DNA of 57,153 bases from Candidatus Omnitrophota bacterium (GCA_016935115.1 JAFGRN010000002.1:69748-126900); one strand, 5' to 3'. Shown: positions 3,898-55,030, numbered from the stretch's first letter. Numbers and translations are program-made. Notes: generated by a model not told the origin, from the letters alone.

Positions 3898-4674
3898 CTA
3901 CTTCCATATCTTCCAGGGGGCCTTTCCGGTCTGCCACATCTGCTCCAGTTCCAGTTTATCTTTCAGCGTATCCATGCATTTCCAGAATCCCGTATGTTTG
4001 TAAGCCGTCAGGCGCCCATCCTTCGCAAGGTTCTCCAGGGGTTCCTTCTCCCATGTCGTCTTGTCGCCTTTTTTTATGTACCTGAAGATCCCGGGTTCCA
4101 GCACGAAGAAGCCCACATTGATCCATGCGCCGTCGCGTTTCGGCTTCTCCAGGAAAGATGATACCTTATTATCTCCCCTGATATCGAATACGCCGAATCT
4201 CCCCGCAGGCTGGATAGCCGACAGGGTGGCGAGTTTTCCGGAGTTTTTATGCGATCTCAACAGGGCATTCATGTCTATATCGCCCACACCGTCCCCGTAT
4301 GTCATCATGAAGGTCTCATTGCCCACATACTTCTCTATCCTCTTCAGCCTTCCGCCGGTAAAAGTCTCCAGGCCCGTATCTATCATCGTAACTTTCCAGG
4401 GCTCGGACGCGCTGGTATGTATCTCCATCCTGTTATTCTTCAGGTCAAAAGTCACATCGCTCATGTGCATAAAGTAGTGGGAAAAATATTCCTTCACCAC
4501 GTATGATTTATACCCGAGACAGATTATGAAATCGTTGAATCCGTAAGACGAGTATATCTTCATCACGTGCCACAATATCGGCTTCCCGCCGATCTCCACC
4601 ATCGGTTTCGGTATGGCGCCGGTCTCTTCTCCTATTCTCGTTCCATAACCGCCGGCAAGAATGACTACTTTCAT
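3898..4674 (-). CDS. rfbF: Glucose-1-phosphate cytidylyltransferase
   Basis: MKVVILAGGYGTRIGEET..IPKPMVEIGGKPILWHVMK, TGGRLKR, MTYGDGV, GFWKCMDTLKDK. Start at 4674 with AGGAGG (track 4728). Confidence 0.95.
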   Translation of the reverse strand: MKVVILAGGYGTRIGEETGAIPKPMVEIGGKPILWHVMKIYSSYGFNDFIICLGYKSYVVKEYFSHYFMHMSDVTFDLKNNRMEIHTSASEPWKVTMIDTGLETFTGGRLKRIEKYVGNETFMMTYGDGVGDIDMNALLRSHKNSGKLATLSAIQPAGRFGVFDIRGDNKVSSFLEKPKRDGAWINVGFFVLEPGIFRYIKKGDKTTWEKEPLENLAKDGRLTAYKHTGFWKCMDTLKDKLELEQMWQTGKAPWKIWK

Positions 4675-4690
4675 GCGTGCATACCTCCTG

Positions 4691-6088
4691 TTAGAATACG
4701 TTCTCCTTTTTCCTGCTGGACTTGCCAAAGCTCAGCCGTCTCAGGATCGCGGGTATATTGCCTCCGACCTCAATAAGCCATCTCGGATTTTTCAGCACAA
4801 AACAGGCGATATTCAAGATCGCGCCGGGCCTCATGTAGAACGCTTTCGACGCATGCTCGGCAAGGCTCTCTATGCGTTCATCGGATAATTCGCATATTCT
4901 CTTGTCCCTGTATCTGCCTTCCAGTTCGGATCCACGCAGAATAGAAAGCATAAAATAATTTGCCAGCGTAGATCCGCAATTCAACGAATAGCTGATGGTT
5001 TTTTTGATAGTATCCTCGGTGTCGCCGGGCAAGCCGAATATGTAAGATACGGCCGTAACAAAACCTATCCTGTTTGCGATCTTGAGCAATCTTTTTAAAG
5101 CCTCCGGCTCCCCCGGATCACGATTGATGCCCCTAAGCACTTCCGCATGCGCCGCCTGTAAGCCAAAGGAGAGAATATCGCATCCTGCCCGCTTCATGAG
5201 CCTAAAGACCCTCTCCGTGTCGGTTCTGATGCTGAATGGATGGAATATGGCCATCCATCTTACTCTATATGGCCTCTTTATCAGTTTCTCACAGAACTCT
5301 TCGATCCAGTCATTTGTCATTCCGAATATGTCATCCTGGAACGCAATATACTTGACTCCATATTTACCGATCACTTCGTCTATTTCGGCGATTACATTAT
5401 CGACGCTGCGCCTTCTGTATTTGTTGCCCCAGGACTTATGGGAGGTGCAGAAGAAACATTTATACGCACAGCCCCTTGAGGCGATCATCGTTATGTATGG
5501 CTTTCTCATGCCGAATAAAAAGTAGTCATGGTACGCGTTTATATCGACTTTTGACCTGTCCGGGAACGGTATTGTATCGATATTCTGTATCAGTTCCTGC
5601 GGCGCCGACTTCACGACCCTGCCGTCTTTTTTGTATGAGATACCTTTTATAGTGTCTATACTTCTTGCGCCGTTATAGTAGTCTACTATATCCTGTATTG
5701 TCTTTTCACCCTCGCCATGCACCACTATGTCGCATCCGTCTTCCAGAAATGTGGAGTTCGTGAGCGTATTCGGCCCTCCCACCAGCACCGGGATTCCGAG
5801 CCTCTCCTTTATCTTCCGGCTGTAGTCCTTGACCTTATTTTCCTGCGGGTCGGAACAGTAAAATCCCACCATGTCAAATTCTTTCAACTTGCCGGATAAC
5901 CAATCGAAATCAAACGGAATGACCGATTGATCGAATATATCTGTCTTGACACCCTTCTTCTCCAGAACGGCCGATAAATACTGGAGGCCCAGTTGGGGCC
6001 TTCTCTGGACGCTGTGCACTATGCCATCCCCCAAAAGATATAATTTTTCTTCGTGTACTAGATATACAAACGCCATCTTCTTTATCAC
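4691..6088 (-). CDS. B12-binding-domain radical SAM protein
   Basis: QLGLQYLSAVL, VLVGGP, VVHGEGE in the N-terminal domain; SRGCAYKCFFC (CxxxCxxC). Confidence 0.9.
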   Translation of the reverse strand: MIKKMAFVYLVHEEKLYLLGDGIVHSVQRRPQLGLQYLSAVLEKKGVKTDIFDQSVIPFDFDWLSGKLKEFDMVGFYCSDPQENKVKDYSRKIKERLGIPVLVGGPNTLTNSTFLEDGCDIVVHGEGEKTIQDIVDYYNGARSIDTIKGISYKKDGRVVKSAPQELIQNIDTIPFPDRSKVDINAYHDYFLFGMRKPYITMIASRGCAYKCFFCTSHKSWGNKYRRRSVDNVIAEIDEVIGKYGVKYIAFQDDIFGMTNDWIEEFCEKLIKRPYRVRWMAIFHPFSIRTDTERVFRLMKRAGCDILSFGLQAAHAEVLRGINRDPGEPEALKRLLKIANRIGFVTAVSYIFGLPGDTEDTIKKTISYSLNCGSTLANYFMLSILRGSELEGRYRDKRICELSDERIESLAEHASKAFYMRPGAILNIACFVLKNPRWLIEVGGNIPAILRRLSFGKSSRKKENVF

Positions 6089-16411: not shown

Positions 16412-17914
16412 CTACCGAACCGTATGAAAGACCCTCTTCATGTTCCCGATCAATACGTAGAGAAAGAGCTGCCAGAATTTGACCAGCATTATTCCCGCTA
16501 GAACCAGAAGATGGGGTATCTTCCTGGCTTTTTCCATGATGGTGCCACCCATATGAAACCATCCTAATTCATCGCGTTTGGTCAATATCTTGGACAGTTT
16601 TCCAAAATCGAAATAGAACCGGAAGTAGCTCAGCAATATATCCATGCGTATTTCATCTTCCGATGTGCCTGCCGGGACATATGAAAGCGGGATCTTTCTG
16701 AACGGGTTCTCGACGAAACAGGCGACGGAATTGAAATTTTCATAAAGGCCTATTACGTTCAGCCTGCCTTCTTTCTTCGCTATATTGAAGAGTTCCGTCC
16801 CCGGGTAAGGTGTCGCGTTATTGTAGCGAACACTATCGAGCCGCAGTTCCCTGGCAAGGCCGGTGCAATCCATCCTGTCTTTATGCGTCTCACCCGGGAT
16901 TCCGTAAATGAAGGTGGCCCCGACTATGAAGCCTATATCTTTGGCCATCTTCACGGCCCTTCTGCAATCTTCCACGCTCTCGCCCTTCTTCAATACCTTC
17001 ATTAGCCTGTCCGAAGCAGTCTCTATGCCAAAGAATATACTCTTAAAACCAGAGTTGAACATCTCCGTTAAGATTGCTTTATCGACATTGTCGGCCCTGG
17101 CCTGGAAGGTAAAGCTTATCTTTTTATCGAATCCCGCTTTCTTTATCTCGGCGAGAAGCGCATTTATCCTGTCTTTACTGACAAGCAGATTATCGTCCCA
17201 GAACGATATGTGGTCCTTGTTATACTTGTAGTGTATGGTATTCAGGTCCTCCATGATCGATGCCGCTGACCTGAACCTGTATCTCTTTCCGGTTATCACC
17301 CTGTTACTGCAGAATATACAGTCATACGGACATCCCCTGGAAGTCATTATTATCCCCAGGTCATACTTATTATGGTCGAAACGGTGATATGGAAAAGCTG
17401 GCATCTTTTCAATATCCTCCGGGAGCGCTGACTGCCTGTTCCTGACCATCTTCCCGTCCTTCATGTAGGCAATATTATCCAGGTGCCTGTAGTCTTTGCC
17501 GCTCTTCACATGCCTGTATAATTCCGGCATGGCTTTTTCGCCTTCTCCTATCACGACGAGGTCTATATGGCCGTGGCAGAGTATTTCTTCCGGAAGCGCG
17601 GATGGGTGTATCCCTCCAAACACGATCACGGAGTCGGGATACAGTTCTTTCAGCTTTCTGGATACCTCTATCGAGCTTTTCAATGCGGCCGTCAGCACGC
17701 TAAAGCCGAATATGTACGGGCGCTCCATTTTTCCGACGAGTTTCTTCACAGCGCCTACCACATCTTCCTCGATCTGCTGGTCGACGAGCTCCATGCGCAT
17801 ATTCTCACGCTCGGCCACCGCCATAAGGTATCCTATACCCAGCGGGACGACGTTCGGGAAGAACGGCTGTATCATCTTCAATCCGTTTTTAGAGCTGGAG
17901 TTTATGATTATCAT
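16412..17914 (-). CDS. B12-binding-domain radical SAM protein
   Basis: PLGIGYL, VFGGIHPS, VIGEGE; SRGCPYDCIFC, GIETAS. Confidence 0.92.
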   Translation of the reverse strand: MIIINSSSKNGLKMIQPFFPNVVPLGIGYLMAVAERENMRMELVDQQIEEDVVGAVKKLVGKMERPYIFGFSVLTAALKSSIEVSRKLKELYPDSVIVFGGIHPSALPEEILCHGHIDLVVIGEGEKAMPELYRHVKSGKDYRHLDNIAYMKDGKMVRNRQSALPEDIEKMPAFPYHRFDHNKYDLGIIMTSRGCPYDCIFCSNRVITGKRYRFRSAASIMEDLNTIHYKYNKDHISFWDDNLLVSKDRINALLAEIKKAGFDKKISFTFQARADNVDKAILTEMFNSGFKSIFFGIETASDRLMKVLKKGESVEDCRRAVKMAKDIGFIVGATFIYGIPGETHKDRMDCTGLARELRLDSVRYNNATPYPGTELFNIAKKEGRLNVIGLYENFNSVACFVENPFRKIPLSYVPAGTSEDEIRMDILLSYFRFYFDFGKLSKILTKRDELGWFHMGGTIMEKARKIPHLLVLAGIMLVKFWQLFLYVLIGNMKRVFHTVR

Positions 17915-18885: not shown

Positions 18886-20313
18886 CTAAGAACATAGCTT
18901 ATCTTTCTCAGCCACGACTACTACATGAGTGAAAAAATCCATGATGCCGAAATAACATTCTATGACCCTGAAGTCCGCTTTTTTGAATATCGAGCACAAC
19001 TGCTCTTTAGACCTGGCAAGCATTATCTCATCCGGATGCAGCCTTATCTCTTTTCCGAATACTTTTTTCATAAACGCGCGGAGCCAATTAAGGAATATCA
19101 CGCTTATGCCGAATACCGGAGGCCAGAATATCACTACCTTACCTTCCGGCTTCAGGATACGGCGGAACTCCGAAAGTATCTTTGCTATATCCTCTTCGGT
19201 AAAATGCTCCATCACTCCCAGATTATAGATGCCGTCATAAGAGCTTTCGCGGAAAGGCATGCGGTGGATATCGCCGTTAACCGTTTCCCCTTTTGCCGAA
19301 TTAAACCTCCTGTAAATGTTCAATGCCGGAAAAGAGTTGTCCAGGGCGGTTACGGGGAACATCCGGAGGATCCCGGCATCCGTCTGTCCGCTCCCGCAGC
19401 CTGCATGGAGCAATTTCGACCCCTCTTTAAAATACCTCTTTACGAAATGATTGAGGCCCGGTCGTATGATCACTTTACGATAGAACGCGGCGACCATATC
19501 GTAAAGAAGCCCCCCGGCGTCATTCTTGCTCTCCCAGTACCAGTCCCAGCCGTTATCAGCGTCTTTTTTCGCAACCGCGGATTTATTGATCGTGAAGAAC
19601 TTCCTGTTAAACGATACGCCCAGGTAGATGCGCACAAGATGGTTCACGCTGTGAAGGATCTCCCTTAAGTTCATCTTGGAATGGCCGTACATCCTCGGCG
19701 GTATTATTATCGGAAGTTCCTTTATGGAAAAGTTATTCACGCTCAATATGTAAAGGCTTTCGAAGAAAAAAGAATAACCCCTCGAACGTACCAATTTAAA
19801 TGCGTCCTTGGGTATCCTGTCCAGTTTATAAAAACGCAGCGCCCCCGTAGCGTCATACTTTATGCCCAGGCAGTGCTTTGTAAGAAAATGTCCGGTCAAT
19901 GTCATAAATTTGCGGAACAAACTCCACCCCTCTATGCTGTTATTCATAATATACCTGGAGCCCACGACGATATCGTAATCTTTGGAAATTTTTATAAGAT
20001 CGGGCAGGATCGCTGGGGAATGCGCGAAATCACAATCCATCGTTATGATGTTCTTATACCCTTTATCATACGCGAACTCTATGCCGTCCAGGTGGGCACT
20101 GCCTACGCCCATCTTGCCCGGCCTGTGAAGCGCCATCACGTTCTTATGCTTCTTCGCGAGCTCATCAATTACCGCGCCGGTACCGTCGGGTGAATTATCA
20201 TCCATGAAGAGGATATCGAGGTCTATGCCCAGGGCTATTATCTCGGAGCATATCTTCCCGACATTCTCCTTCTCATTGTACGTCGGAATAAATACCAGGG
20301 CCCTATCGCTCAT
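18886..20313 (-). CDS. Fusion: Dpm1/Ppm1-like polyprenyl-phosphate glycosyltransferase (GT2) + class I methyltransferase
   Basis: N-terminal IPTYNEKEN, DDNSPDGT, MDCDFAH, VVGSRY; C-terminal LLHAGCGSG, YDGIYNLGVMEHF, LKPEG. Confidence 0.88.
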   Translation of the reverse strand: MSDRALVFIPTYNEKENVGKICSEIIALGIDLDILFMDDNSPDGTGAVIDELAKKHKNVMALHRPGKMGVGSAHLDGIEFAYDKGYKNIITMDCDFAHSPAILPDLIKISKDYDIVVGSRYIMNNSIEGWSLFRKFMTLTGHFLTKHCLGIKYDATGALRFYKLDRIPKDAFKLVRSRGYSFFFESLYILSVNNFSIKELPIIIPPRMYGHSKMNLREILHSVNHLVRIYLGVSFNRKFFTINKSAVAKKDADNGWDWYWESKNDAGGLLYDMVAAFYRKVIIRPGLNHFVKRYFKEGSKLLHAGCGSGQTDAGILRMFPVTALDNSFPALNIYRRFNSAKGETVNGDIHRMPFRESSYDGIYNLGVMEHFTEEDIAKILSEFRRILKPEGKVVIFWPPVFGISVIFLNWLRAFMKKVFGKEIRLHPDEIMLARSKEQLCSIFKKADFRVIECYFGIMDFFTHVVVVAEKDKLCS

Positions 20314-21253
20314 TGCCTAAAAACCCCTCCTCGGCCAAAAGCAGCCTTATCATCCCCCTGAAGTCGACAGACGGCTTCCACGAGGTCATCGACCTCAATT
20401 TCGCGGGATTGCCTATGAGATGATACCTCTGTCTCGCCAGCACCCTGCGATCCTCCCTGACATGCTGTTTCCAATCCAGCCCGAGAAATCCAAAAGTTAC
20501 CTTTACAAAATCCAGCACGGAATGGCCCTTGCCGGTGGCGATGATAAAATCGCCGCTATCGGCGATATTCAGTATCTTATGCATCGCTTCTACATAGTCC
20601 GGCGCGTATCCAAAGTCCTCCGTGGAGCTGAGGTCGCCTAATACTATCTTTTTTCGCCTGCCTTTCCTGATATCCATCGCGCCCTTTATTATCTTCCTGG
20701 ATATGAACTTCTCCCCGCGCAGAGATGACTCGTGATTATACAGGATCCCCGCGGAGACAAAGACCGAATACCTCTCCCTGTAAAAACGGCAGATGAAAAG
20801 GCCCGCCGCTTTGGTGATCCCGTAAATGGAAACCGGATTTATAGGCGTATTCTCGTCCTGGATCCGGCTTCTGGCATTGCCGAAGATGTGGGACGATGCG
20901 GCGTAAAACAGCCTGGTAGCGGGTGAGGCCTCTTTTATAGCCTCAAGAAAATTGATCAGCGAAAAGACGTTGACCTTGTAACTCTGCGCTGACAGTTCCA
21001 GGTTTTCTATAGGAGCATCCTCGGACGAATGGTGAAAAGCGGCCAGATAATATATCTCGTCCGGCCTGAATCTCTTTACGGCCTGCCGGACATCTTTGGC
21101 GGAGCTTATATCCACCGCCTTGAATCGCAGCCTCCCGGTCGATCTGGCAATGCCCTTATCTATGCTTAAGACCTCGTACTTCTTCCTCATGAGAAGGCCC
21201 GTAAGGAGCCTGCCGTCCTGGCCTTCACAGCCCACCACAATGGCTCTCTTCAT
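20303..21253 (-). CDS. Gmd-like SDR, probably a GDP-4-keto-sugar reductase (Rmd-like)
   Basis: GCEGQDG, PDEIYYLAA, YGITK, YNHES..R, DFGYAPDYV. The dehydratase SSE motif reads SSH. Confidence 0.8.
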   Translation of the reverse strand: MKRAIVVGCEGQDGRLLTGLLMRKKYEVLSIDKGIARSTGRLRFKAVDISSAKDVRQAVKRFRPDEIYYLAAFHHSSEDAPIENLELSAQSYKVNVFSLINFLEAIKEASPATRLFYAASSHIFGNARSRIQDENTPINPVSIYGITKAAGLFICRFYRERYSVFVSAGILYNHESSLRGEKFISRKIIKGAMDIRKGRRKKIVLGDLSSTEDFGYAPDYVEAMHKILNIADSGDFIIATGKGHSVLDFVKVTFGFLGLDWKQHVREDRRVLARQRYHLIGNPAKLRSMTSWKPSVDFRGMIRLLLAEEGFLGNER

Positions 21254-22506
21254 CTTTCCACGATTTCCGGATCAGGCATCGGGAAGATAAACTTTCCCCC
21301 CGAGCGCAGGTAATCCTGTTCTCTCGCTATGATACTGGCCTTAAAATGCCATGGCAGAACCAAAAAATAATCCGGTTTCTTCTTCTTTGCTTCTTCTTCG
21401 GAAATAATGGGTATATGCGTCCCCGGAGTATAACACCCAAACTTATCCTCGTTAATTTCAGCTATACAGCAGATATCCCTCTCCGTAAGGTTGCAAAATT
21501 GCAGAATCACATTTCCTTTTGTCGATGCTCCATAACCAATGATCTTTTTATTTTTATCTCTCAAGCCCCGTATCAGTCCGCACAGCTCATCCCTGTGCCT
21601 GAAGACACGTTCCCTGAAATCAACGTACGGTTTCAGATTCCCTAACCCCTTTCTCTCTTCCTCTCTTATTATCTTTTCCACCAGATCCGATTTTTCACAA
21701 TACACGGAAGATTTCTTTGCGGCTGTAACCGACATACTGCCGCCATTCACGCTGTTGAATTCGATATCTACCACCTTCAAACCGGCCCTGTCCATCATCC
21801 ACTTTATCTCTTTCAGCCTGTAATATTCCAGATGTTCATGGCAGATCGTGTCATAAGAGTTCATCTCCAGCATTAATGGCATATAGCTCTGCTCAAAAAC
21901 CCATATGCCGTCATCGGATAAGATATCACTGACCTCCCTCATAAATTCAAGAGGGGATTCCAGGTCGTAGAACATGGCTATGGAGGTAATGACCTTGGCC
22001 TTTTTCCCGCCGAAATTTTTCTTCACGATCCCGGCGCTAAAAAAATCCGGGATAAGCCGTATATGAGGAGGGTAGTATTTTTTAAATTTCTTCCCTGCCG
22101 GATCTATTCCCACAAGCACAAGCCCCGATTCAGGATAAGCGCGCAAAAGGGTACCGTCGTTGCTTCCTATGCCTATAACCATATCTCCCGGATTTAACGA
22201 AACTATCCTGAAAATACTCTTGATCTTACTCTTCAAATGTTCCACCATGGAGCTGTTTAGGGCCGAGCGATAACCGTAGCTCGGCCCGTACATCTTAATG
22301 ACATCGAATGAGTGTTTGAGCTGAACCAGGCCACAGCGGTCATCACTACCGTTCTCGATGCACTTGACTAACTGCAGCGGCTCGGATTCAACATTCTCGG
22401 CCCTGTCTTTAGGGAAAAAGCCTGTCATGGCCTGGTTACCAAGATCGAGAATACTGATCAGCTCTTCATTGCCGCATATCCGGCATCTCCTGATCTCCCT
22501 ACCCAT
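21250..22506 (-). CDS. NDP-hexose C-methyltransferase (TylCIII/EryBIII/NovU-like)
   Basis: [56 protein letters not shown]. Confidence 0.9.
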
Positions 22507-23569
22507 ACTTGATTCCCATCCTCCTGCCCAGGGCCTCGTGCTCCGCGAGTTTCAGATCCGATTCCATCATCATCCTGATCAACTCTTTAAACAGGGTCTT
22601 TTTAGGTTTCCAACCCAGTTTCTTGACAGCTTTATCGGGATTGCCAAGCAGAGTCTCCACATCCGTGGGCCTGAAATAGTCCGGATCCACCTCAATTATG
22701 GTCTTCTTTGTCCTCCGGTCGATGCCTTTCTCATTAAGGCCCTTGCCCTTCCATATAAGATCGATCCCTATCCCTTTGGCGGCCAGCTCGGCAAACTCCC
22801 GCACGCTGTGATTCTCCCCGGTAGCTATGACATAGTCGTCGGGCTTCGGCTGCTGCAGCATTAGCCACATTGCCTCAACATAATCTTTCGCGTAACCCCA
22901 GTCTCTCCTGGCATTGAGATTGCCCAAAAGCAGCTTCTTCTGCAGGCCAAACTTCATGCGCGCCAGGCTCATCGTTATCTTTCTCGACACAAAATTTTCG
23001 CTCCTGCGGGGAGATTCATGGTTAAAAAGAAACCCGTTGCATATGAACATGCCGTAGGCCTCTCTGTAATTCTGGGTTATGTAAAAAGAGAACGCCTTGG
23101 CGCAGGCGTACGGGCTCCTGGGATGGAACGGTGTCGCCTCGCTCTGCGATTTGGCGGGAAAACTCCCGAATATCTCACTGCTCGATGCCTGATAAAACTT
23201 CGTCTTTAATTTTACCTCTTTTATGGCATCCAGTAGCCTTATGATTCCCAGGGCATTTACATTTGTGGTATATTCGGGCATTTGAAAACTTATTCCCACA
23301 TGGCTTTGAGCCGCCAAATTGTAAATTTCATCCGGCTTTACCTTCTCCAGTATCCTGTTCAATGAACTTGCGTCATTAAGATCCCCGTACATGAGTTTCA
23401 GGCGGTCGTTATGCTGTCCATCAAAAAGGTAAAGATGCTCGATCCTGTGCCGTTTAAACAGACTGGTTCTTCTTATTACCCCGTAAACATGATAACCCTT
23501 ATCAAGCAGAAACTCCGCCAGATAGGACCCATCCTGGCCCGTAATACCCGTAATGAGCGCTTTCTTCAT
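22499..23569 (-). CDS. gmd: GDP-mannose 4,6-dehydratase
   Basis: [60 protein letters not shown]. Confidence 0.96.
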
Positions 23570-23599: not shown

Positions 23600-24823
23600 T
23601 CAAACAGATAGTATCCTGTATATCGCGGCATATCCGGTTATAGCAGCTTCATTTGAAAGGAGTTTCCTGGCGGTAGCTGCGCATCTTTCCCTGAGAAGGC
23701 CTTTTCCCCTCTTAAGCTCAATCAATTCACCCAGCGCGGCGCCAAATTCCCGTTCCGTGAAACTGTTCACCACCACTCCCACCCTGTTATCGCGCACAAG
23801 CTCTTCCGTGTCTCCGATACCGGGATTTATTATCACGGGCACGCCCGAGGAAAGAAACTCGCCCATCTTTATCGGGGAGGATCCTATCTTATTACGCGGA
23901 TTTATGAAAAATATGCCCGCGTCCGCCATTCGCATATACCGCGGCATCTCTTCATAAGGTACCTTCTCTTTTATCAAGATCCTGTCCGCGGCGATTCCGA
24001 GCGCTTTTGCCCGTCCAAGAAAGAGCGACGGTTCATCGGCTGTAACTATGAAGAATACGGCATCCGGCAGCATCACCGACATGTATTTAAAAAATGCCAG
24101 CATCTCGTCCATAAAATAGAAGGTTCCTATCTTGCCGGGATACATCAGGACAAACCTGCCGCCTATACCCAGCTCGCTTCTTACGGCAGCCTCATCTTTT
24201 TCGTCGGAGACAAATCTCCCCGTATCGACACAGCACGGGACCACATCCATGGGTATATTCCTGGAAACAAGGTAGTCGAGAGATCTGTTCAGGTCAAGAT
24301 GTTTCCGGGTAAGAACCGTAACGGCATCAGCCCTCATGAGCATTCTCTTCTCCGCCGCCTTCACAAGGCGGAACCGCAGCCCCCCTTCTTCCCATAATCC
24401 TCCGGCGGCATATTCCTCCGCCAGGAGGCCCCTCATATCGAAAAGTATCTTGAATCTGAGAAACTTCGAAACAGCCATTACGGCAATGCCGGGCGTTATT
24501 CCCCTGACATGCACTATCTTCACATGCCCTGAAAATATTATGAAGAATACGCGTATGGCGCCCATGAAGAGATCGAAGATCGTCGATAAAACCGGCGGAT
24601 TTTTATGGTACCGCAGGTATTGCCAATCGATACCGTATTTTTTAAGGCCCTCTTTTAATTTACGGAGCCCTTTACGGCCTACTCTGTCGAGATCCCCCTT
24701 CTTCTCGTATGTCAGAAGAATGAATTCATATCCCCGCTCGGCAAGGCCCTTCAGGTAGGGAATTGCCTGGGACGGCAGGATCGGCTCGAGAAGTCCGTTA
24801 TAGGAGATGAAGAGCGCCTTCAT
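23600..24823 (-). CDS. GT4 family glycosyltransferase
   Basis: FDMRG..AEEY, PCCVD, SSPIKMGEFLSSGVPV, GIGD. Confidence 0.88.
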   Translation of the reverse strand: MKALFISYNGLLEPILPSQAIPYLKGLAERGYEFILLTYEKKGDLDRVGRKGLRKLKEGLKKYGIDWQYLRYHKNPPVLSTIFDLFMGAIRVFFIIFSGHVKIVHVRGITPGIAVMAVSKFLRFKILFDMRGLLAEEYAAGGLWEEGGLRFRLVKAAEKRMLMRADAVTVLTRKHLDLNRSLDYLVSRNIPMDVVPCCVDTGRFVSDEKDEAAVRSELGIGGRFVLMYPGKIGTFYFMDEMLAFFKYMSVMLPDAVFFIVTADEPSLFLGRAKALGIAADRILIKEKVPYEEMPRYMRMADAGIFFINPRNKIGSSPIKMGEFLSSGVPVIINPGIGDTEELVRDNRVGVVVNSFTEREFGAALGELIELKRGKGLLRERCAATARKLLSNEAAITGYAAIYRILSV

Positions 24824-26301
24824 GCGGCCTTTTCCATATTTTTCCCGAGGAGAGAGACCCTTCTTGCCATACGGAATATTTTGACAAGCACTCCGCCAAA
24901 CTGGGTAAGCCCTATCTTAATAAGCCTTACCGGATGCGCGGCATTGTCCTTTATAAAGTTCCTGAGGTTTATCGGAAGTATCACTTTAAGTCTGGCTTCG
25001 AGATAAAGTTTCTCAAACATACCCGTCGGCATATCCGCGTAATTGGCATAGGAGGCCTCCTGGTCCCCTACATCCTCCCATCTGGGCAGAGGTTTCCCAT
25101 CGCGCTTTAATTCCTCATAGCTCGGCGTGCCCGGGAGCGGCATGAATATATTGAATCCCACCATGTTGGGCCTGACTTTTTTTATGAACCGCAACGTCTC
25201 TTTGAAATCATCAACTCTCTCTCCGGGATAACCGGTTATGATATTCGCCTGGAACCGGAGGCGCGCCTTTCTCGTTAATTCAGCGGCCCTTAAGCTCTCC
25301 CCAACAACCTGCCTCTTGTTCATGAGATCGAGGACCCTCTGTGAACCTGATTCAAATCCATACTCTATTCCGACGCAGCCGGCCTCTTTCATGAGCTCCA
25401 GGAACTCTTTCGTAATAACACTCGCCTTCGCCTGCGCTATCCATTTTATCTTCCTGTTTATGCCTTTCTCAATAAAGAGGTTCAGCAGCTCTTCGGCCCT
25501 CTTCTTTGACGCAAGGAACATGTCCTCCGCGAAATACAGGGCCTCCACATCATATTTCCCGATAAGTTCTTCGATCTCGCTTATGACCCTGCCCGTGGAA
25601 TGGAACCTTACCTTACCGCTGAATACCAGGGGGCCAGCGCAAAAACTGCACCTGTAGGGGCATCCCCGCGCGGTGAATATCGAAGTGGTCCTTAAATTAA
25701 GATTTCTCGAAGTGAACCTGCTCGGCCTTGTATAAAATTTCATGTCAAGGATATGCCTGGCGGGGAACGGTATGTCGTCGAGATTGCCGACGGGAATCCT
25801 CTCCGGAGTCGAGATTATTTCTTCTCCCTTCCTGAATGTTATGCCGTCTGTATTCTTAAGTTCTTTGCCCAGGGCAAGATCCAGCAGGGTCTGCTCCCCT
25901 TCGCCCCTTACACAGATATCGGCGGAGGGCACTTCCTTTAATGTAAGATACGGCTCTCCTGTGACATGCGGCCCGCCCAGCACCACCATAGTGCCAGGCA
26001 AAGAGGCCTTTATCCGGTCCGCAAGGTGCGCGGTATCCGGCATATTGGGGGTCGTTACGCTTATTCCTACAATGCCGGACCTGAAATCCCTGATCCTGGC
26101 GAGGGTCAATTCGTCAAGCTTTTCGAAATCCATTCCGTTCTTGCGTAGCAGGACATCCCTGTCGAGTATTTCGACATTGTGCCCGTGCTTTTCCAGCACC
26201 GCGGCGAGGTATGCCAGCCCGAGAGGCGGCCAGAATTGCTTATTCTCATCCACCATCACCCTTCTCCGCGACAGCAGGGGGTATATCAGCGTCACATTCA
26301 T
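24820..26301 (-). CDS. B12-binding-domain radical SAM protein
   Basis: WPPLGLAYLAAVL, VLGGPHVT, RGEGE; ARGCPYRCSFC, GFESGSQ. Confidence 0.93.
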   Translation of the reverse strand: MNVTLIYPLLSRRRVMVDENKQFWPPLGLAYLAAVLEKHGHNVEILDRDVLLRKNGMDFEKLDELTLARIRDFRSGIVGISVTTPNMPDTAHLADRIKASLPGTMVVLGGPHVTGEPYLTLKEVPSADICVRGEGEQTLLDLALGKELKNTDGITFRKGEEIISTPERIPVGNLDDIPFPARHILDMKFYTRPSRFTSRNLNLRTTSIFTARGCPYRCSFCAGPLVFSGKVRFHSTGRVISEIEELIGKYDVEALYFAEDMFLASKKRAEELLNLFIEKGINRKIKWIAQAKASVITKEFLELMKEAGCVGIEYGFESGSQRVLDLMNKRQVVGESLRAAELTRKARLRFQANIITGYPGERVDDFKETLRFIKKVRPNMVGFNIFMPLPGTPSYEELKRDGKPLPRWEDVGDQEASYANYADMPTGMFEKLYLEARLKVILPINLRNFIKDNAAHPVRLIKIGLTQFGGVLVKIFRMARRVSLLGKNMEKAA

Positions 26302-26304
26302 ATC

Positions 26305-28047
26305 TTAAAGCTTTCTCCTGTAGATATCTATACGCGGGCCTCTGATAACGCTCTTTGATCCCGCCAGGCTGATCGAACGTAGTGCATGGTAATCCCGATC
26401 CATAAAATGCGGAAAGAACGAGGTAAACTCCACCGTTGGAGCAAATGATCTTTCGAGCGCGTATCTTTTCGCAAGTGTCTTCTTCATCGCATTCCGGCTC
26501 TCATAGTATCCCTCTTCTATGAAATAACGCATCTCATAACTTACAAACGTATCGTCGTTATTGGACGTTGTAATGATAAATAACGGGTCATTCGAAAGTA
26601 TATCCGATTCTTTCAGCTTGTCGACTTTTACGACATCATACAAAGAACTCCCCGCGTATAGTTCGTCATAATATGCCATTTTTACCTTCTGCAGCGAACC
26701 ACTGCCGCCTATGGCGACGGCCCCGTCAAAATCCCTTTTAACGCTCTCCACATTGCCAGCCAGCTGAGGAGAACTTATGGCGTTCCCAAAGAGGCATCCC
26801 TCCTCGAGTACTGTTGATTCCTTTTCTATATTATCCTCTATCCATGATTTTGCGATCGTCCGCGTATCGGGACTTGCCACTACCTTGATCAATTTTATCG
26901 AATCTATGAATGATGGAAAAACTATTAACGCGGCCGCCAGGGTCGCAAAAAAAATTGATCTTCTGAAAAGTATTCCGGAAAGTAGTTCGTCGAGAAAACG
27001 CCCTGCCAGAATAAATACGAAAAAACTAAGCGGTATGATGTGATACGCAAAACCTGTAATATTCATGAAGATAAGATATTGCGATATCGGAAAAACAACG
27101 AGAAGCAAGTCCCATCTGGTTCGCCTGTAAAGAGCGTAGCCCATACCGCACAACGATAATATCTCCAGCGGAACCCCCCACCCGTTCCTCATATGATTGG
27201 TAAAATAATAAAGCCACCTGTGCTTGTTCGGATTGACCGTAATGTGCGCACCTCCTATCCTGACCACGGTATCCTGGTATACGGCCCCTATGTTAAAAAG
27301 CGCGGAAGGCACGCCGATGAAAAATCCCGCCATTACCATGGCCGAGCCAGCCGCGAGCATCCGGACCAGCGCAACAACCGATCGTAGCCGCTCATCCCTG
27401 TATTTAATAAATGCCGCGACAAAAAGGAACGCCACGCCGAAAACACAATGTAATTTACCCGCTACGGCAAGCCCGACGAGAAGGGACGCGGCATAATATA
27501 AGCTGCGGTCTCCGGTTTTCTGAATACTCAAAACCACACATAAAAAAGCGCATGCCAACAGGAAGGTAGCGGGCACATCGGCCAGCGCAAAAATTGACAT
27601 CTGAAAAGTCAATAAAGAGAATCCTGTAAATATCGCCGCTATCAGCGCGGCTCTTGCGTTGAAGATTTTCGCGGTAATCGCATAGGAAAGATATATAAGC
27701 GATGTACCGCACAGGATAGAAATCACCCTGCCCAATATAAAAAAGACCGAAGGATCACGCAGATAACCTACAAGAAATGATGCAGGCGAGGTAACAGCAC
27801 CCAACACCTTAAGAAGGATGAAGTATAATCCATAGATAATGCCCAGGACCAGCTGGTATAGGCCACCGTGAGAATATGAGAACGGCTTGAGATTTCCACC
27901 GGCCATGCGCAGGGCATCTTCAACGTAATTATTCTCGTCGTGCCAATAGGTATAGGGCAGGCTTGCCTGGACAGGATAGAGCCTCATCGCAAAGGCAAAT
28001 AAGATCACGGCCATTAATACCGGATACGTGGCCCTCATATTACTCAT
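26305..28047 (-). CDS. GT-C membrane glycosyltransferase (ArnT/PMT-like)
   Basis: HDE in the first loop, about 11 hydrophobic segments, GLAVAGK, C-terminal soluble domain. Start MSNMR at 28047 (track 28089). Confidence 0.8.
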   Translation of the reverse strand: MSNMRATYPVLMAVILFAFAMRLYPVQASLPYTYWHDENNYVEDALRMAGGNLKPFSYSHGGLYQLVLGIIYGLYFILLKVLGAVTSPASFLVGYLRDPSVFFILGRVISILCGTSLIYLSYAITAKIFNARAALIAAIFTGFSLLTFQMSIFALADVPATFLLACAFLCVVLSIQKTGDRSLYYAASLLVGLAVAGKLHCVFGVAFLFVAAFIKYRDERLRSVVALVRMLAAGSAMVMAGFFIGVPSALFNIGAVYQDTVVRIGGAHITVNPNKHRWLYYFTNHMRNGWGVPLEILSLCGMGYALYRRTRWDLLLVVFPISQYLIFMNITGFAYHIIPLSFFVFILAGRFLDELLSGILFRRSIFFATLAAALIVFPSFIDSIKLIKVVASPDTRTIAKSWIEDNIEKESTVLEEGCLFGNAISSPQLAGNVESVKRDFDGAVAIGGSGSLQKVKMAYYDELYAGSSLYDVVKVDKLKESDILSNDPLFIITTSNNDDTFVSYEMRYFIEEGYYESRNAMKKTLAKRYALERSFAPTVEFTSFFPHFMDRDYHALRSISLAGSKSVIRGPRIDIYRRKL

Positions 28048-29377
28048 GCTTTTCCCTTTTATTACGATCAAAAAAAGCCGGAGCGGCAAGGATACAATAC
28101 AGAGGTATCAGCGGTACCGCGTACCTGCCTATGGCGTCCAGTAAAGAGTACATGAGGTTTACATACAGTATTATGACTGCCAGGGCTATCCACCGATCCC
28201 AGATATATATGTTCTTTATCATCGCTATAAATACCAGCAGGATCAGTATGTAAGCGATCGATCTGCTCATGCCCTTCATAAGCGCAAGGACCAATTCCCC
28301 GTTTCGGGTCTTTGAAAAATATTTGGTGACGCTCTCTTCATTCAGAAGAGGAGTGTATGTAAAAGCTGTCATTTTTATTCCCTCTATGAAGGTATATCCC
28401 AGATACCTGAACGGATGTTCCGATATCTTCCGGAAGGCTTCTCCCGCCATCTTCTTGTCTATCTCTCCCGGCGGCATACCCTGCTTCGCGTACTCATCCT
28501 CCAGCGCCATTTCCCGCTCCAGGTCTTTAAAAAAGTACCTGTTCGATACGGTGATTATATCGGGAAAGAGTTTCTTCCCCAGATATTCGGAGAAGCTGCA
28601 CGTTACAGTGGCCATGAGCTCCCTCGGAGAATCGTCTATCTTCTCTGCCCGCGACCAGATGACCATGCCTCCCCGCGAGGCCATCGAAAATGTATTGAAG
28701 ACCATCTTATTTCTTATCGGCCAGACGGAAATAATTCCCATGTAGACAGCGATAAGCAGGACGCTATATACGACAAAACGCTTTATTTCCGCCTTTTTAA
28801 CAATGCGCGATATGAAAACCATGGCAAGTATGGCAAACGGCAGGAACAGTACTATGGTCTTCGTCAATGTCAATAATCCGAATACCGCGCCGCACACGGC
28901 AAAGCGCAGGGCGGTCTGGCGCTTCAACGCCAGCAGCAGTAATAACACGCTCAGGCATAATTCGAATGTAAACAGGGTCTCGCTGAGTATGTATGACGCC
29001 GTATTCGCCAGCGTCGGAAAGACGGCGACCATTATGCCCGACAGAAAAGCGGCATTTTCCGAAAAGATATGCCGCGCTATAAAATACGCCATTACAGCTG
29101 TCATGGCATGCAATAGAATCTGTACGAAAACCACCGGTATCGGGTTATGCCCAAATGCCCTGTATACGGCCGCCAGGAATACCGGGTAAGCCGGCTCCCG
29201 ATACATTGTGGGAAGATACGGGGCGCTCTCGCTCTGGGAAAAGCCGCGGCCGCAGGCCAGGTTATACCCGATCCTGTCATACTGCGTGGCGTCCGGACCC
29301 ATTGCCGGAGAACCGAACATGATAAATATTCCGGCCGTTAATATGCCCAGTACCGATATGATCAATATTTTACGCAT
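28040..29377 (-). CDS. GT-C membrane glycosyltransferase (ArnT/PMT-like)
   Basis: PDATQYD, REPAYP, SETLF, GLLTLTK, RYAVPLIP; multiple TM helices. Confidence 0.82.
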   Translation of the reverse strand: MRKILIISVLGILTAGIFIMFGSPAMGPDATQYDRIGYNLACGRGFSQSESAPYLPTMYREPAYPVFLAAVYRAFGHNPIPVVFVQILLHAMTAVMAYFIARHIFSENAAFLSGIMVAVFPTLANTASYILSETLFTFELCLSVLLLLLALKRQTALRFAVCGAVFGLLTLTKTIVLFLPFAILAMVFISRIVKKAEIKRFVVYSVLLIAVYMGIISVWPIRNKMVFNTFSMASRGGMVIWSRAEKIDDSPRELMATVTCSFSEYLGKKLFPDIITVSNRYFFKDLEREMALEDEYAKQGMPPGEIDKKMAGEAFRKISEHPFRYLGYTFIEGIKMTAFTYTPLLNEESVTKYFSKTRNGELVLALMKGMSRSIAYILILLVFIAMIKNIYIWDRWIALAVIILYVNLMYSLLDAIGRYAVPLIPLYCILAAPAFFDRNKREKHE

Positions 29378-51064: not shown

Positions 51065-52369
51065 TTAAAGCCTTATTATTTTGCCGCGCTTGACGGTATT
51101 TTTCAGGACATTCCTTGTATCTATTATCAGCTTCGAGTTCTTAACTATGAAATCGTAATCGACCGCCGTATGGTCGGTCACGATAATGACGCAATCGGCG
51201 GACCTGAATGTCCCCCTGGAAAATTTCGAACAGTGGAGATTGATATTGTGTATTTTAAGGTACGGGAAGAAGGGGTCATAATACGAAACGTCCGCGCCCT
51301 TATTCACCAGCATCTCTATTATCTCCAGGGCCGGGGATTCGCGCAGGTCCTTCACGTCTTTCTTATAGGCCACTCCGACAATGAGCACCCTGGATCCGTT
51401 AAGCGCTTTCTTCTCTGAATTAAGGCCTTCTATAGTCTTGCGCACCACATATTGCGGCATCTTTGAATTCACGTGCGAAGCAAGGTCTATGAAGCGCGCC
51501 TCGAAGCCGTGGACACGGGCCTTCCAGGAAAGGTATATGGGATCGACGGGGATGCAGTGGCCTCCTACGCCAGGGCCGGGATAGAACGGCATAAAACCGT
51601 ACGGCTTAGTCTTCGCGGCGTCGATCACCTCCCAGATATCTATCTTAAGCTTGTCGCACATAAGGAGTATCTCGTTAACCAGCCCTATATTCACTATCCT
51701 GAAAGTATTCTCCAGAAGTTTTACCATCTCCGCGACCCTGGCCGAAGATACCGGCACAACGGTTTCGAGCGCCTGTTCATAGAGGGCCCTGGCCATTTCC
51801 GTCGATTTGGCCGAAATGCCGCCTATTATCTTCGGAGTATTCTTCGTATCATATTTCGGGTTACCGGGATCGACGCGCTCCGGAGAGAAAGCGAGATAGA
51901 AATCTTCCCCTTCCTTTAAACCGTCCTCTTCCAGCACGGGCAGCATGACCTCTTCGGTAGTGCCGGGATAAGTCGTGGATTCCAGCACGATGATCTGGCC
52001 GGGTTTCATGTACTGTTTTATCTTCTTTACGGCTGAGACTATGTAAGAGACATCCGGCTCCCTGGTCTTGTAAAGCGGGGTGGGAACACATATTATGACC
52101 GCGTCGAGCGCCTTTATCACGCTGAAGTCCGTCGTCACCTCAAACGACTTATTGCGGGTCACCGCCGCAAGTTCGGACCTGGGCACATCGAGGATATAAG
52201 ACTCCCCCTTCTTTATCTTGGCGACCCTTCCTTTATCTATATCGATTCCATGGACTTTGAATCCGGCTTTCGCGAATGTCACTCCGAGCGGCAACCCGAC
52301 ATACCCCAGGCCTATTATACCTATCTTTGCTTTCCTGCTAAGTATCCTCTTCTTCAATTCTTTCAGCAT
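51065..52369 (-). CDS. Nucleotide-sugar 6-dehydrogenase (WbpA/WecC-like UDP-GlcNAc dehydrogenase)
   Basis: IGLGYVGLPL, ICVPTP, LESTTYPGTT, AFSPER.DPGN, KLLEN, GPG.GGHCIPVDP. Start MLKELKK at 52369; the track start (52411) lies within a repeat. Confidence 0.93.
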   Translation of the reverse strand: MLKELKKRILSRKAKIGIIGLGYVGLPLGVTFAKAGFKVHGIDIDKGRVAKIKKGESYILDVPRSELAAVTRNKSFEVTTDFSVIKALDAVIICVPTPLYKTREPDVSYIVSAVKKIKQYMKPGQIIVLESTTYPGTTEEVMLPVLEEDGLKEGEDFYLAFSPERVDPGNPKYDTKNTPKIIGGISAKSTEMARALYEQALETVVPVSSARVAEMVKLLENTFRIVNIGLVNEILLMCDKLKIDIWEVIDAAKTKPYGFMPFYPGPGVGGHCIPVDPIYLSWKARVHGFEARFIDLASHVNSKMPQYVVRKTIEGLNSEKKALNGSRVLIVGVAYKKDVKDLRESPALEIIEMLVNKGADVSYYDPFFPYLKIHNINLHCSKFSRGTFRSADCVIIVTDHTAVDYDFIVKNSKLIIDTRNVLKNTVKRGKIIRL

Positions 52370-52384
52370 GAAACCTCTCTTTTT

Positions 52385-52433
52385 AGATTGCTTCGTCAGC
52401 GAGGAAGCCATCTACAGCTTCCTCGCAATGACG
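52385..52433. repeat. Intergenic palindromic element (RPE/REP-like)
   Basis: Perfect 10-bp stem GCGAGGAAGC (52399-52408) / GCTTCCTCGC (52417-52426) with an 8-nt loop, flanked by AGATTGCTTCGTCA and AATGACG; minus strand reads CGTCATTGCGAG...GACGAAGCAATCT, as recalled for RPE-like repeats. Confidence 0.75.
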
Positions 52434-52434
52434 A

Positions 52435-53358
52435 TCAGTTTAATAGATATCTTTTTAACGCGTTTTTCCATCCAGGCATCGCATAACCTGTATATTTACG
52501 GAACTTCGAATTATCCAGCACCGACATGGCCGGCCTCCTGGCCGGACGCGAAAGTTCCCGCGAACTTATAGGCAGGACCTTCGTATTCATCCCGGAAATC
52601 TTTAATATCGACTTCGCGTATCCGAACCATGAAACCTTGCCGGAGTTCGAAACATGATAAATGCCGTAGATCGTAAATCGTGGATCGTCGTTCGTAATTA
52701 TGCCCAACAACGCGTGTATGGCCTTTGCCAGGTCCTTAGTATAAGTCGGGGAACCGACCTGGTCTTTTACTACCCTCAATGGCTGTCCGGCTTTTGCTCT
52801 GGCCGCTATCGTATCTACAAAATTCTTCCCGCGCTTCCCGTACAACCAGCTCGTCCGCACGATCAGGTATCGTTTCAGTATTTTGGCAACATACTCTTCG
52901 CCCCTGAGCTTTGACCGGCCATAGACACTCAGTGGGCCCGTCCTGTCGGATTCCGAATAAGGGCCCTTCTTCTTTCCGTCAAAAACAAAGTCCGTGCTGA
53001 TATAGATAAGGACCGATCCGGCCTTCCTGCAGGCGGCCGCGACATTCTTCGTTCCGGCCGAATTTACCGCAAAAGCCTTTTTGCGGTCAAGTTCGCAGCC
53101 ATCGACATCCGTCCATGCCGCCGAATGGATAACCGCGTCGGGCCTGGCGCGCGCTATGGCATTTCCGACGGATCTCGCGTCGGTAATATCGGCCCTGTAA
53201 AACCTGCCCGGAGCCAATCCGGGACCTCTTACGAGATCGAGCCCGGCCACATCATAGCCGGATCTGAGCTCCCGGCAAAGATCCGCTCCGAGCATTCCGC
53301 TCGAACCGGTTATCAGTACTTTATATCTTTTCGGCACTTTACTAACCGGCCCCACCAT
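52435..53358 (-). CDS. rfbD: dTDP-4-dehydrorhamnose reductase
   Basis: ITGSSGMLG, HSAAWTDVD.CE, YISTDFVFDG, YGRSKL.GE, DQVGSPT. Confidence 0.94.
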   Translation of the reverse strand: MVGPVSKVPKRYKVLITGSSGMLGADLCRELRSGYDVAGLDLVRGPGLAPGRFYRADITDARSVGNAIARARPDAVIHSAAWTDVDGCELDRKKAFAVNSAGTKNVAAACRKAGSVLIYISTDFVFDGKKKGPYSESDRTGPLSVYGRSKLRGEEYVAKILKRYLIVRTSWLYGKRGKNFVDTIAARAKAGQPLRVVKDQVGSPTYTKDLAKAIHALLGIITNDDPRFTIYGIYHVSNSGKVSWFGYAKSILKISGMNTKVLPISSRELSRPARRPAMSVLDNSKFRKYTGYAMPGWKNALKRYLLN

Positions 53359-54293
53359 GCTTTATTATTCCTGTACCACTCAACAGTAAGTTTAAGCGCG
53401 GCGGCAAACTCATAACGCGGTTTCCAACCGAGCGCTTTCATCTTGGAGATATCGAGAGCATAGCGCTTATCATGGCCCGGCCTGTCTTTCACAAACTCTA
53501 TCGAGCTCTCATCCTTACCCAGTATTCCCAGCAGCATCCGCGTAAGCTCAAGATTTGTCGTCTCTCCTCCGATACCAATATTGTAAATATTACCCGCCAA
53601 GCCTTTGTGAAGCACTGTATCTATCGCCTCGCAGTTGTCCGTAACGTACAGCCAATCCCTAATATTCATTCCATCCGCATAGAGGGGGACCTTCTTGCCC
53701 GCCATGAGATTTGTAATAAAGAGCGGTATCACCTTTTCTGGATACTGGTAGGGCCCGAAATTATTCGAACTGCGCGTGATGGCCACCGGCAGTCCGAATG
53801 TCGTAAAATAAGACATCACCAGAAGATCGGCACCGGCTTTTGTGGCCGAATACGGGCTGCGCGGCTCCAGCAGGTCCGTCTCTTTAGAATATCCGCGCTC
53901 AACGCTGCCATATACTTCATCAGTGGATATCTGGAGGAATAATTCCACGCCGGACATTCTTGCCGCTTCCAGGAGCGTATGGGTCCCGAACACATTGGTC
54001 TGCACAAATACGCCCGGATCCTTTATAGACCTGTCGACATGCGATTCGGCCGCGAAATTGATGACCACGTCTGAATCGCGCACCAGCTTCCCGGCCAAAG
54101 CCGCGTCCGTTATATCGCCTTTCACGAAACTGTAATTTTTATGCTTCTCTATGCCTCTCAGATTTTCGAGATTTCCGCAATACGTGAGCTTATCCAGGTT
54201 CACGATCCGGTAATCGGGATATTTATCTATCATGTACCTTATAAAATTGGAACCGATAAACCCGGCTCCGCCCGTAACGAGGAGTCTCTTCAT
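53313..54293 (-). CDS. rfbB: dTDP-glucose 4,6-dehydratase
   Basis: [61 protein letters not shown]. Confidence 0.96.
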   Translation of the reverse strand: MKRLLVTGGAGFIGSNFIRYMIDKYPDYRIVNLDKLTYCGNLENLRGIEKHKNYSFVKGDITDAALAGKLVRDSDVVINFAAESHVDRSIKDPGVFVQTNVFGTHTLLEAARMSGVELFLQISTDEVYGSVERGYSKETDLLEPRSPYSATKAGADLLVMSYFTTFGLPVAITRSSNNFGPYQYPEKVIPLFITNLMAGKKVPLYADGMNIRDWLYVTDNCEAIDTVLHKGLAGNIYNIGIGGETTNLELTRMLLGILGKDESSIEFVKDRPGHDKRYALDISKMKALGWKPRYEFAAALKLTVEWYRNNKAWWGRLVKCRKDIKY

Positions 54294-55027: not shown

Positions 55028-55030
55028 AGG

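Follow-up and report, generated by a model that had tools for sequence, protein, structure and literature searches.

What does a relative of Gmd, the 4,6-dehydratase of GDP-mannose, do once the catalytic glutamate of that enzyme is gone, and why is its gene set between those for a sugar C-methyltransferase and a glycosyltransferase, in the same run of overlapping genes as a canonical gmd? The question is raised by positions 18886-23569 of a stretch of DNA from a Candidatus Omnitrophota bacterium (GCA_016935115.1, JAFGRN010000002.1:69748-126900; 57,153 nt, hereafter the window), where four genes follow one another:

18886-20313, minus strand: family 2 glycosyltransferase (GT2; like dolichol/polyprenyl-phosphate mannose synthase, DPMS; residues 4-230) with a fused class I methyltransferase domain (residues ~290-450); PF00535 and PF08241
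20303-21253, minus strand: Gmd-derived short-chain dehydrogenase/reductase (SDR) lacking the Glu, a proposed NAD(P)H-dependent 4-ketoreductase (P0003, 316 aa); YAASSHIFG and YGITK
21250-22506, minus strand: sugar 3-C-methyltransferase of the TylCIII/MtmC/TcaB9 type (P0002, 418 aa); PF08421, PF13489 and PF08484
22499-23569, minus strand: gmd, canonical GDP-mannose 4,6-dehydratase (P0001, 356 aa); TIGR01472 511.1 bits, PF16363 4e-142

To our knowledge, C-branched sugars are rare, and the routes to them that have been proven biochemically all run via dTDP-sugars in antibiotic producers. The reading that we favor for the four genes, with a probability of roughly 65% as judged from sequence and gene neighborhood, is a pathway in which Gmd action would be followed by C3 methylation, C4 reduction and transfer of the sugar to polyprenyl phosphate. 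A sequence-only reading of this DNA had already recognized gmd (by its QASSSEIFG), the C-methyltransferase and the YAASSHIFG/YGITK paralog within 20303-23569, and all three are indeed there, on the minus strand.

Start and stop codon overlaps join all four genes. The gmd ATG is preceded, at 8 nt, by an AGGAG ribosome-binding site; the gmd stop and the C-methyltransferase start share 8 nt (ATGGGTAG), the C-methyltransferase stop and the P0003 gene start overlap as ATGA, and the P0003 gene stop and the start of the GT2-methyltransferase fusion overlap by 11 nt. These four translationally coupled genes are a conserved, horizontally mobile cassette.

A Gmd relative without the catalytic glutamate

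Membership of the Gmd family was defined by the TIGR01472 equivalog model, whose cut-off of 415 bits P0001 exceeds with its score of 511.1 bits. P0001 carries GITGQDG, an RR NADP motif (residues 33-34), S130-S131-E132 within QASSSEIFG (23165-23191), Y154/K158 and RPxD(E), and it matches the [ST]-S-E ... Y-x3-K catalytic signature. Within this signature of GMDs, one Glu is the sole acid/base residue beyond the Ser/Tyr/Lys triad (PMC8987622).

P0003 is 32% identical to P0001, and its His122 (codon 20888-20890) aligns opposite Glu132 with no gaps; YAASSHIFG lies at 20879-20905 and YGITK at 20810-20824. Gmd is the closest family to P0003 by both sequence and fold. P0003 scores 200 bits on TIGR01472, under the 415-bit cut-off, and this sub-threshold gmd hit is its only NCBIfam match. 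Among PDB entries, GMDs match at 1e-51, while Rmds, the SDR 4-ketoreductases that act after Gmd on GDP-4-keto-6-deoxyhexoses, match at 2e-20 (2pk3) and 6e-11 (6x3b). When its AlphaFold2 model (pLDDT 92) was searched with Foldseek, ranks 1-31 were all GMDs (template modeling score, TM, 0.84-0.88; TMq up to 0.88), with Rmds at ranks 32 and 50. Gmd and P0003 have in common the GxxGQDG motif, the Ser/Tyr/Lys triad and an NHES...R...RK block, and differ in that P0003 has 7 residues inserted after strand 4 and ~15-28 residues deleted after strand 2.

A homologue search covering 5.8 billion proteins placed P0003 in a dense family of proteins of 300-330 aa with 52-76% identity to it, and all but one of its named relatives are labeled GDP-mannose 4,6-dehydratase (NCBI, UniRef, JGI). 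A plasmid collection queried with P0003 returned ordinary Gmds at up to 39% identity and no member of the clade described next. A tree was built from 99 Gmd-like proteins, drawn from 80 genomic loci and the window; in it, the Glu-less proteins formed one clade (44 rows, SH-aLRT 98) beside the true Gmds and apart from the Rmd-like outgroup (L071, 4e-74 to 2pk3). Phylogeny against Gmd and Rmd had been named in the sequence-only reading as a check, and its outcome, P0003 within a Gmd-derived clade, fits that reading. P0003 was also considered as an Rmd member, and this was ruled out by sequence, fold rank and tree: Rmd has the function proposed here for P0003 and a similar length (~300-320 aa), but it is of a different lineage, its members retain Glu/Asp as well as RD(F) and R-x-x-E motifs and, unlike the P0003 clade, they are not linked to C-methyltransferases.

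Of 163 members of the clade, 131 have His at the Glu site, 21 have Leu, 6 Arg, 3 Gln, 1 Lys and 1 Glu, whereas Glu occupies it in 53 of 53 sampled Gmds. The earlier description of a Glu-to-His variant thus holds for P0003 itself and for the 131, but it is not universal, with Leu in 13%. Since Leu and the other residues are scattered through the clade, His is not its defining feature; the loss of Glu, not His, defines the P0003 clade. S120 is kept in 162 of the 163 members, and Y144, K148 and G8/G11/G14 are each at least 90% conserved in both the Gmd and the P0003 families, so that P0003 (S120-S121-H122, Y144, K148) has the SDR triad together with the Rossmann GxxGxxG. The simplest reading of these patterns is an SDR that would be able to transfer hydride at C4 and unable to eliminate water. 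The proposal that the paralog is a reductase, not a dehydratase, accordingly finds support in a monophyletic Glu-less clade that has kept the triad and GxxGxxG, at the level of sequence.

It could be argued from the Gmd fold (TM 0.84-0.88), the PF16363 match and the database labels that P0003 is still a GDP-mannose 4,6-dehydratase, with His in place of Glu as the acid/base. We consider this very improbable: P0003 falls under the equivalog cut-off, Leu, Arg, Gln or Lys occupies the site in a fifth of the members, the RR motif that holds NADP in Gmd is gone from the clade (D/G-K instead), and many loci have a true Gmd next to it, beside which a second dehydratase would be superfluous. Furthermore, human GMD E157Q was crystallized with intact GDP-mannose, according to the title of PDB 6gpk.

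Alternatively, the paralog may be a bifunctional 5-epimerase/4-reductase like GDP-fucose synthase (GMER/Fcl), with His122 as the C5 base and an L-series 3-C-methyl-6-deoxyhexose as the product. His122 is two residues past the catalytic Ser, in the slot of the Gmd Glu that acts at C5, and we take this slot to be also that of GMER Cys109; C5 alone would still be epimerizable once C3 is methylated. The catalytic residues of GMER include S107 and C109 (PMC3539893). A second clade-specific His, His74, replaces the invariant Gmd Ser89 in 93% of the clade. However, a site that holds Leu in 13% of members and Arg, Gln or Lys in others, scattered through the clade, is unlikely to supply an essential base, and no second acid/base partner was identified. 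A 5-epimerase role is possible for the His-bearing members, and for the paralog as a whole we rate it as unlikely, though as the strongest of the alternatives to a plain 4-ketoreductase.

Other residues also set the clade apart. The Arg of the Gmd RDW motif is Ile or Val in the clade (Glu212 in P0003), and the RPxE motif (273-275 in P0003) gives way to a shorter, basic loop, modeled with low confidence; the clade-specific changes at 74, 212 and 273-275 correspond to window positions ~20429-21034. An argument for GDP binding from P0003's own residues was dropped, as the RPxE and RDW arginines are lost, and it is the genomic context that suggests GDP binding by the clade. Likewise, a preference for NADH based on Asp32 at the end of strand 2 was not adopted, since Asp32 is found in only 57% of the clade.

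The dehydratase residue has been lost elsewhere as well. A Pseudomonadales metagenome-assembled genome contains two tandem short Gmd genes (L047:8001-9910), the first encoding SSSKIFG, with Lys, and the second retaining Glu. The Lys copy groups among the true Gmds and has no C-methyltransferase nearby; here a duplicated Gmd has lost the dehydratase residue independently.

The partner C-methyltransferase and the linkage of the cassette

P0002 has the three-domain architecture of sugar C-methyltransferases (PF08421 1.3e-11, PF13489 8e-15, PF08484 8.7e-52) and matches the solved structures of MtmC (4rv9) at 2.9e-63 and TcaB9 at 2e-48; no NCBIfam model matches it. It has its fold, Zn cysteines and Glu-His pair in common with TylC3/EryBIII/AviG1, MtmC, TcaB9 (3ndi) and KijD1 (5t64). 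Its C8, C11, C49 and C58 align with the Zn cysteines of MtmC and TcaB9, and the E224-H225 pair is kept in 39 of 39 partner-clade C-methyltransferases; the roles given here to the four cysteines and the catalytic pair are those of TcaB9. In contrast to the dTDP-sugar 3-C-methyltransferases, the P0002 clade has Cys in place of Tyr222 of TcaB9/MtmC (39 of 39 members; CHEH at 21832-21843 in P0002), a longer loop between Zn cysteines 3 and 4, and a Glu-less Gmd-like protein as its constant companion. The partner C-methyltransferases form a single separate clade, with a branch of 1.15 substitutions per site (support 100) between them and MtmC/TcaB9. The substrate of this clade is probably a GDP-sugar, unlike that of the dTDP enzymes.

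In 39 of the 44 clade loci that could be assessed, the C-methyltransferase gene ends no more than 145 bp upstream of the paralog start, and in one further locus it is 1.4 kb away. By contrast, none of the 34 control loci, in which the hit retains Glu, has a C-methyltransferase within 8 kb (Fisher p = 8e-17 for 39/44 versus 0/34). The arrangement of a C-methyltransferase with a Glu-less Gmd-like gene is therefore far beyond chance. The sub-groupings of the partner C-methyltransferase tree also parallel those of the P0003-clade tree, which indicates that the two genes have been inherited and transferred as a pair.

The clade loci come from ~20 bacterial lineages and the archaeon Methanoregula. 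The bacteria are Elusimicrobia, Planctomycetes, Omnitrophota, Patescibacteria, Bdellovibrionales, Oligoflexia, Gamma-, Beta-, Alpha- and Deltaproteobacteria, Chloroflexi, Verrucomicrobia, Bacteroidetes, Acidobacteria, Gemmatimonadetes, Cyanobacteria, Kuenenia, Nocardia and Micromonospora. Among 30 relatives from the window's own lineage, only 2 have the paralog, a scattered presence that fits a mobile glycan module.

The genes on either side of the pair recur as well. Directly upstream of the C-methyltransferase, a true Gmd gene is by far the most frequent (14 of 34 loci), and it is the only type of 4,6-dehydratase that recurs at that position in these 34 loci. Directly downstream of the paralog, a GT2 is commonest (18 of 41 loci), in 11 cases with a fused methyltransferase. 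The window's fusion has orthologues (44-56% identical) in ~28 of 43 paralog loci versus 3 of 34 controls, whether as the full fusion, as a split pair or as the GT2 alone.

This linkage bears on a further possibility, that the paralog is Rmd-like and converts unmethylated GDP-4-keto-6-deoxy-D-mannose to GDP-D-rhamnose or GDP-6-deoxy-D-talose, while the C-methyltransferase serves another sugar. Such a role would suit the four clade members without an adjacent C-methyltransferase, and the copy in Micromonospora carbonacea, described below, could serve the D-fucose branch assigned to AviE3 (PMC8234114). Nevertheless, the adjacency in 39 of 44 loci, the matching tree sub-groupings and the overlapping frames point to a shared pathway and, because the C-methyltransferase needs a 4-keto group, reduction within it must come after methylation. 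An Rmd-like role thus seems improbable to us, more so than 5-epimerization.

Some loci depart from the layout in the window. Eight Nocardia genomes (L018-L024, L035) carry gmd, the C-methyltransferase and the paralog in window order, with a DPMS-like GT2 without a methyltransferase domain that is divergently transcribed just upstream; this suggests that a C-methylated deoxysugar not yet described is carried on polyprenyl phosphate in the Nocardia envelope. In one Methanoregula locus (L004) and one from Bacteroidetes (L016), the GT2 and the methyltransferase are separate genes, the methyltransferase of L004 lying on the opposite strand. A second Methanoregula locus (L003) has the C-methyltransferase/paralog pair and no GT2-methyltransferase homologue within its flank. 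The two Methanoregula loci place the cassette in methanogenic archaea.

A proposed route from GDP-mannose to polyprenyl phosphate

In the pathway that we favor, Gmd (P0001) would open the route from GDP-mannose, and the C-methyltransferase, using S-adenosylmethionine (SAM) and the 4-keto group, would methylate C3, as its homology and Glu-His pair suggest. The paralog, which would no longer dehydrate because its single acid/base Glu is gone, would then reduce the 4-keto group with NAD(P)H to yield a GDP-3-C-methyl-6-deoxyhexose, a step to which the residue patterns of the clade and the gene linkage point. Finally, judging from synteny and the best structural relatives, the DPMS-like GT2 domain may move the sugar onto polyprenyl phosphate, the fused methyltransferase may add an O-methyl group, and GT-C enzymes may use the lipid-linked sugar outside the membrane. 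The product could be evalose-like, virenose-like or another isomer at C3/C4.

The acceptor step is suggested mainly by the likeness of the GT2 domain (residues 4-230) to DPMS, for which the best PDB match is the Pyrococcus furiosus enzyme (5mlz, 1.3e-21), with ArnC at 8.8e-7. DPMS/Ppm1, the closest family, is GDP-mannose-dependent. The fusion differs in that a soluble class I methyltransferase domain, its C-terminal half, takes the place of the C-terminal membrane helices, leaving it without membrane-anchoring helices, and in that its proposed donor is a modified 6-deoxyhexose. A ManC-like guanylyltransferase, which could supply substrate, is encoded on another contig of the same genome. The Gmd linkage, the GT2 neighbor, its likeness to DPMS and the presence of a ManC-like enzyme together support a GDP-linked pathway that would end on polyprenyl phosphate. 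Two further parts of the sequence-only reading are strengthened by these comparisons: a branched GDP-sugar, by the dedicated C-methyltransferase clade beside the paralog and the Gmd upstream in 14 of 34 loci, and its probable hand-over to the Dpm1-methyltransferase fusion, by the GT2 orthologues, the downstream position of GT2 and the DPMS match.

Elsewhere in the window lie genes that bear on the use of the product and on the sugar nucleotides available:

3898-4728, minus strand: RfbF-like nucleotidyltransferase (CDP-sugar set)
26305-29377, minus strand: two PMT_2-type GT-C membrane glycosyltransferases (PF13231 4.6e-8 and 8.6e-16)
51065-52411 and 55478-56773, minus strand: two UDP-glucose/GDP-mannose dehydrogenase genes
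52435-53358, minus strand: rmlD
53313-54293, minus strand: rmlB
54290-55027, minus strand: rmlA
55031-55477, minus strand: rmlC-like gene

The GT-C pair might conceivably use a polyprenyl-phosphate-linked sugar donor; it has no orthologues in the other paralog loci. The complete rml set, the dehydrogenases and the CDP genes indicate that the cluster draws on dTDP-, UDP-, CDP- and GDP-sugars.

The minus strand carries all 51 open reading frames of at least 98 aa in the window (1-57153), and every one of the 44 scanned for domains is glycan-related or sugar-tailoring; the whole forms a single surface-glycan locus of ~57 kb, or ~4% of a 1.4-Mb genome (82% complete). Radical SAM genes number at least six in the window, and four of those are B12-dependent; the cassette is flanked by two B12-binding radical SAM proteins (16412-17914 and 24820-26301) whose best matches, all sub-threshold, are the HpnJ, BchE and C-/P-methyltransferase families. 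These flanking proteins have no orthologues in the other P0003-clade loci and so are not part of the conserved module.

Several observations weigh against a GDP-linked reductase pathway. In four clade members (L017, L025, L028 and L038) a C-methyltransferase gene is missing next to the paralog, so methylation of the substrate is not a strict requirement for the reductase. Solved Rmds retain an acidic residue (GSSEEYG in 2pk3, SSGDVYG in 6x3b), and for this reason the loss of Glu is not itself a reductase signature; it marks lost dehydration, not gained reduction. The clade also lacks the Gmd-invariant Arg and Glu of RPxE (R300/E303) and the RDW Arg, which both solved Rmds retain and which we take to hold the nucleotide and the diphosphate, and with these residues lost the nucleotide handle of the substrate may differ from GDP. 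In addition, His could in principle act as an acid/base, and the window's RmlA-D and CDP-sugar set make dTDP- and CDP-4-keto-6-deoxyhexoses available too. In the literature searched there was no biochemical study of any P0003-clade member and no characterized GDP-sugar C-methyltransferase, only in-silico Coxiella papers and reviews.

A further possibility is that the paralog, and perhaps the C-methyltransferase, acts on a dTDP- or CDP-4-keto-6-deoxyhexose or on a polyprenyl-phosphate-linked keto-sugar. DprE2 works on a lipid-linked keto-sugar, and a DPMS-like GT2 is the commonest downstream neighbor of the paralog. The loss of R300/E303 and the RDW arginine, the presence of rmlABCD (52435-55477) and the RfbF-like nucleotidyltransferase (3898-4728) in the same cluster, and the use of dTDP-sugars by all characterized C-methyltransferases of the P0002 fold would likewise be consistent with a substrate other than a GDP-sugar. 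On the other hand, Gmd is the sole recurrent adjacent type of dehydratase (14 of 34 loci) and its gene overlaps the next one here, the partner C-methyltransferase clade stands well apart from the dTDP enzymes, and the diphosphate-contacting NHES...R...RK block is common to Gmd and paralog. Furthermore, no lipid-linked intermediates would be expected in an antibiotic cluster, which is where the actinomycete member lies. We regard a non-GDP substrate as unlikely, slightly more so than the 5-epimerase role, and retain the GDP-linked pathway.

The closest described idea is the in-silico virenose route of Coxiella burnetii, which comprises Gmd (CBU_0689), a TylCIII-like C-methyltransferase (CBU_0691) and a GMER-like reductase (CBU_0688; PMC3539893, PMC3204966). 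The parallel to this route that had been drawn from the sequence stands insofar as Gmd, a C-methyltransferase and a reductase were proposed there, but not for the reductase itself: the Coxiella candidate is of the Fcl/GMER epimerase-reductase type and has 45% identity to E. coli GMER, whereas the one described here is Gmd-derived (PMC3539893). The present cassette also adds a DPMS-like transferase, which the Coxiella proposal lacks (PMC3539893). The SDR and SAM chemistry is conventional; the novelty lies in the enzyme lineage, in its near-universal mislabeling and in the conserved four-gene cassette.

D-evalose as a possible product and the reach of the cassette

One clade member lies in an antibiotic setting that may indicate a product. 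In M. carbonacea DSM 43168 (L017, contig NZ_FMCT01000012.1, ~119.8-165.7 kb), a Glu-less protein with ASSHVFG, 47% identical to P0003 and annotated as GDP-mannose 4,6-dehydratase, has as neighbors a pyruvate-dehydrogenase E1 alpha/beta pair, PhyH oxygenases, a GT2, and dTDP-glucose synthase and dehydratase, which are typical of everninomicin/avilamycin clusters. Within 45 kb, the same contig encodes three further proteins: a true Gmd with 50% identity to P0001, a C-methyltransferase branching as sister to the partner clade, and a TcaB9-like C-methyltransferase. Everninomicins contain D-evalose, or 6-deoxy-3-C-methyl-D-mannose (PMC12961483), while the avilamycin 'GMD' AviE3 has been assigned, without biochemistry, to the D-fucose branch (PMC8234114). 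Either assignment needs a 4-ketoreductase after Gmd, which fits the activity proposed for the P0003 clade. The genes on this contig are thus candidates for D-evalose or for the D-fucose branch, and the stereochemistry of the window's enzyme is not fixed thereby. Outside antibiotics, evalose or 3-C-methyl-mannose has been proven chemically in the O-antigens of Robbsia andropogonis and of Helicobacter pylori strains.

Our broader proposal, which we judge to be as likely as not, is that the P0003 clade is an unrecognized isofunctional family of 4-ketoreductases that forms, together with C3-methyltransferases of a GDP-specific clade and a DPMS-like GT2 with or without a fused methyltransferase, a co-evolved mobile cassette in many bacteria, methanogens and Nocardia. 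This cassette would deliver a C-branched, methylated 6-deoxyhexose via polyprenyl phosphate to surface glycans and would supply D-evalose in everninomicin. A GDP-based route to a C-branched sugar has previously been a proposal on paper only, for the virenose of the Coxiella O-antigen; the cassette described here spans Omnitrophota, Patescibacteria, Methanoregula, Nocardia and Micromonospora. If the proposal is true, many GDP-mannose 4,6-dehydratase labels would need re-annotation, and there would be candidate genes for everninomicin D-evalose and for the unassigned 3-C-methyl-rhamnose and -mannose of lipopolysaccharides. The P0003 clade would also be a clean natural case of a dehydratase that became a reductase by losing a single acid/base residue, and C-methylated deoxysugars delivered by polyprenyl phosphate would be a common, overlooked trait of microbial surfaces.

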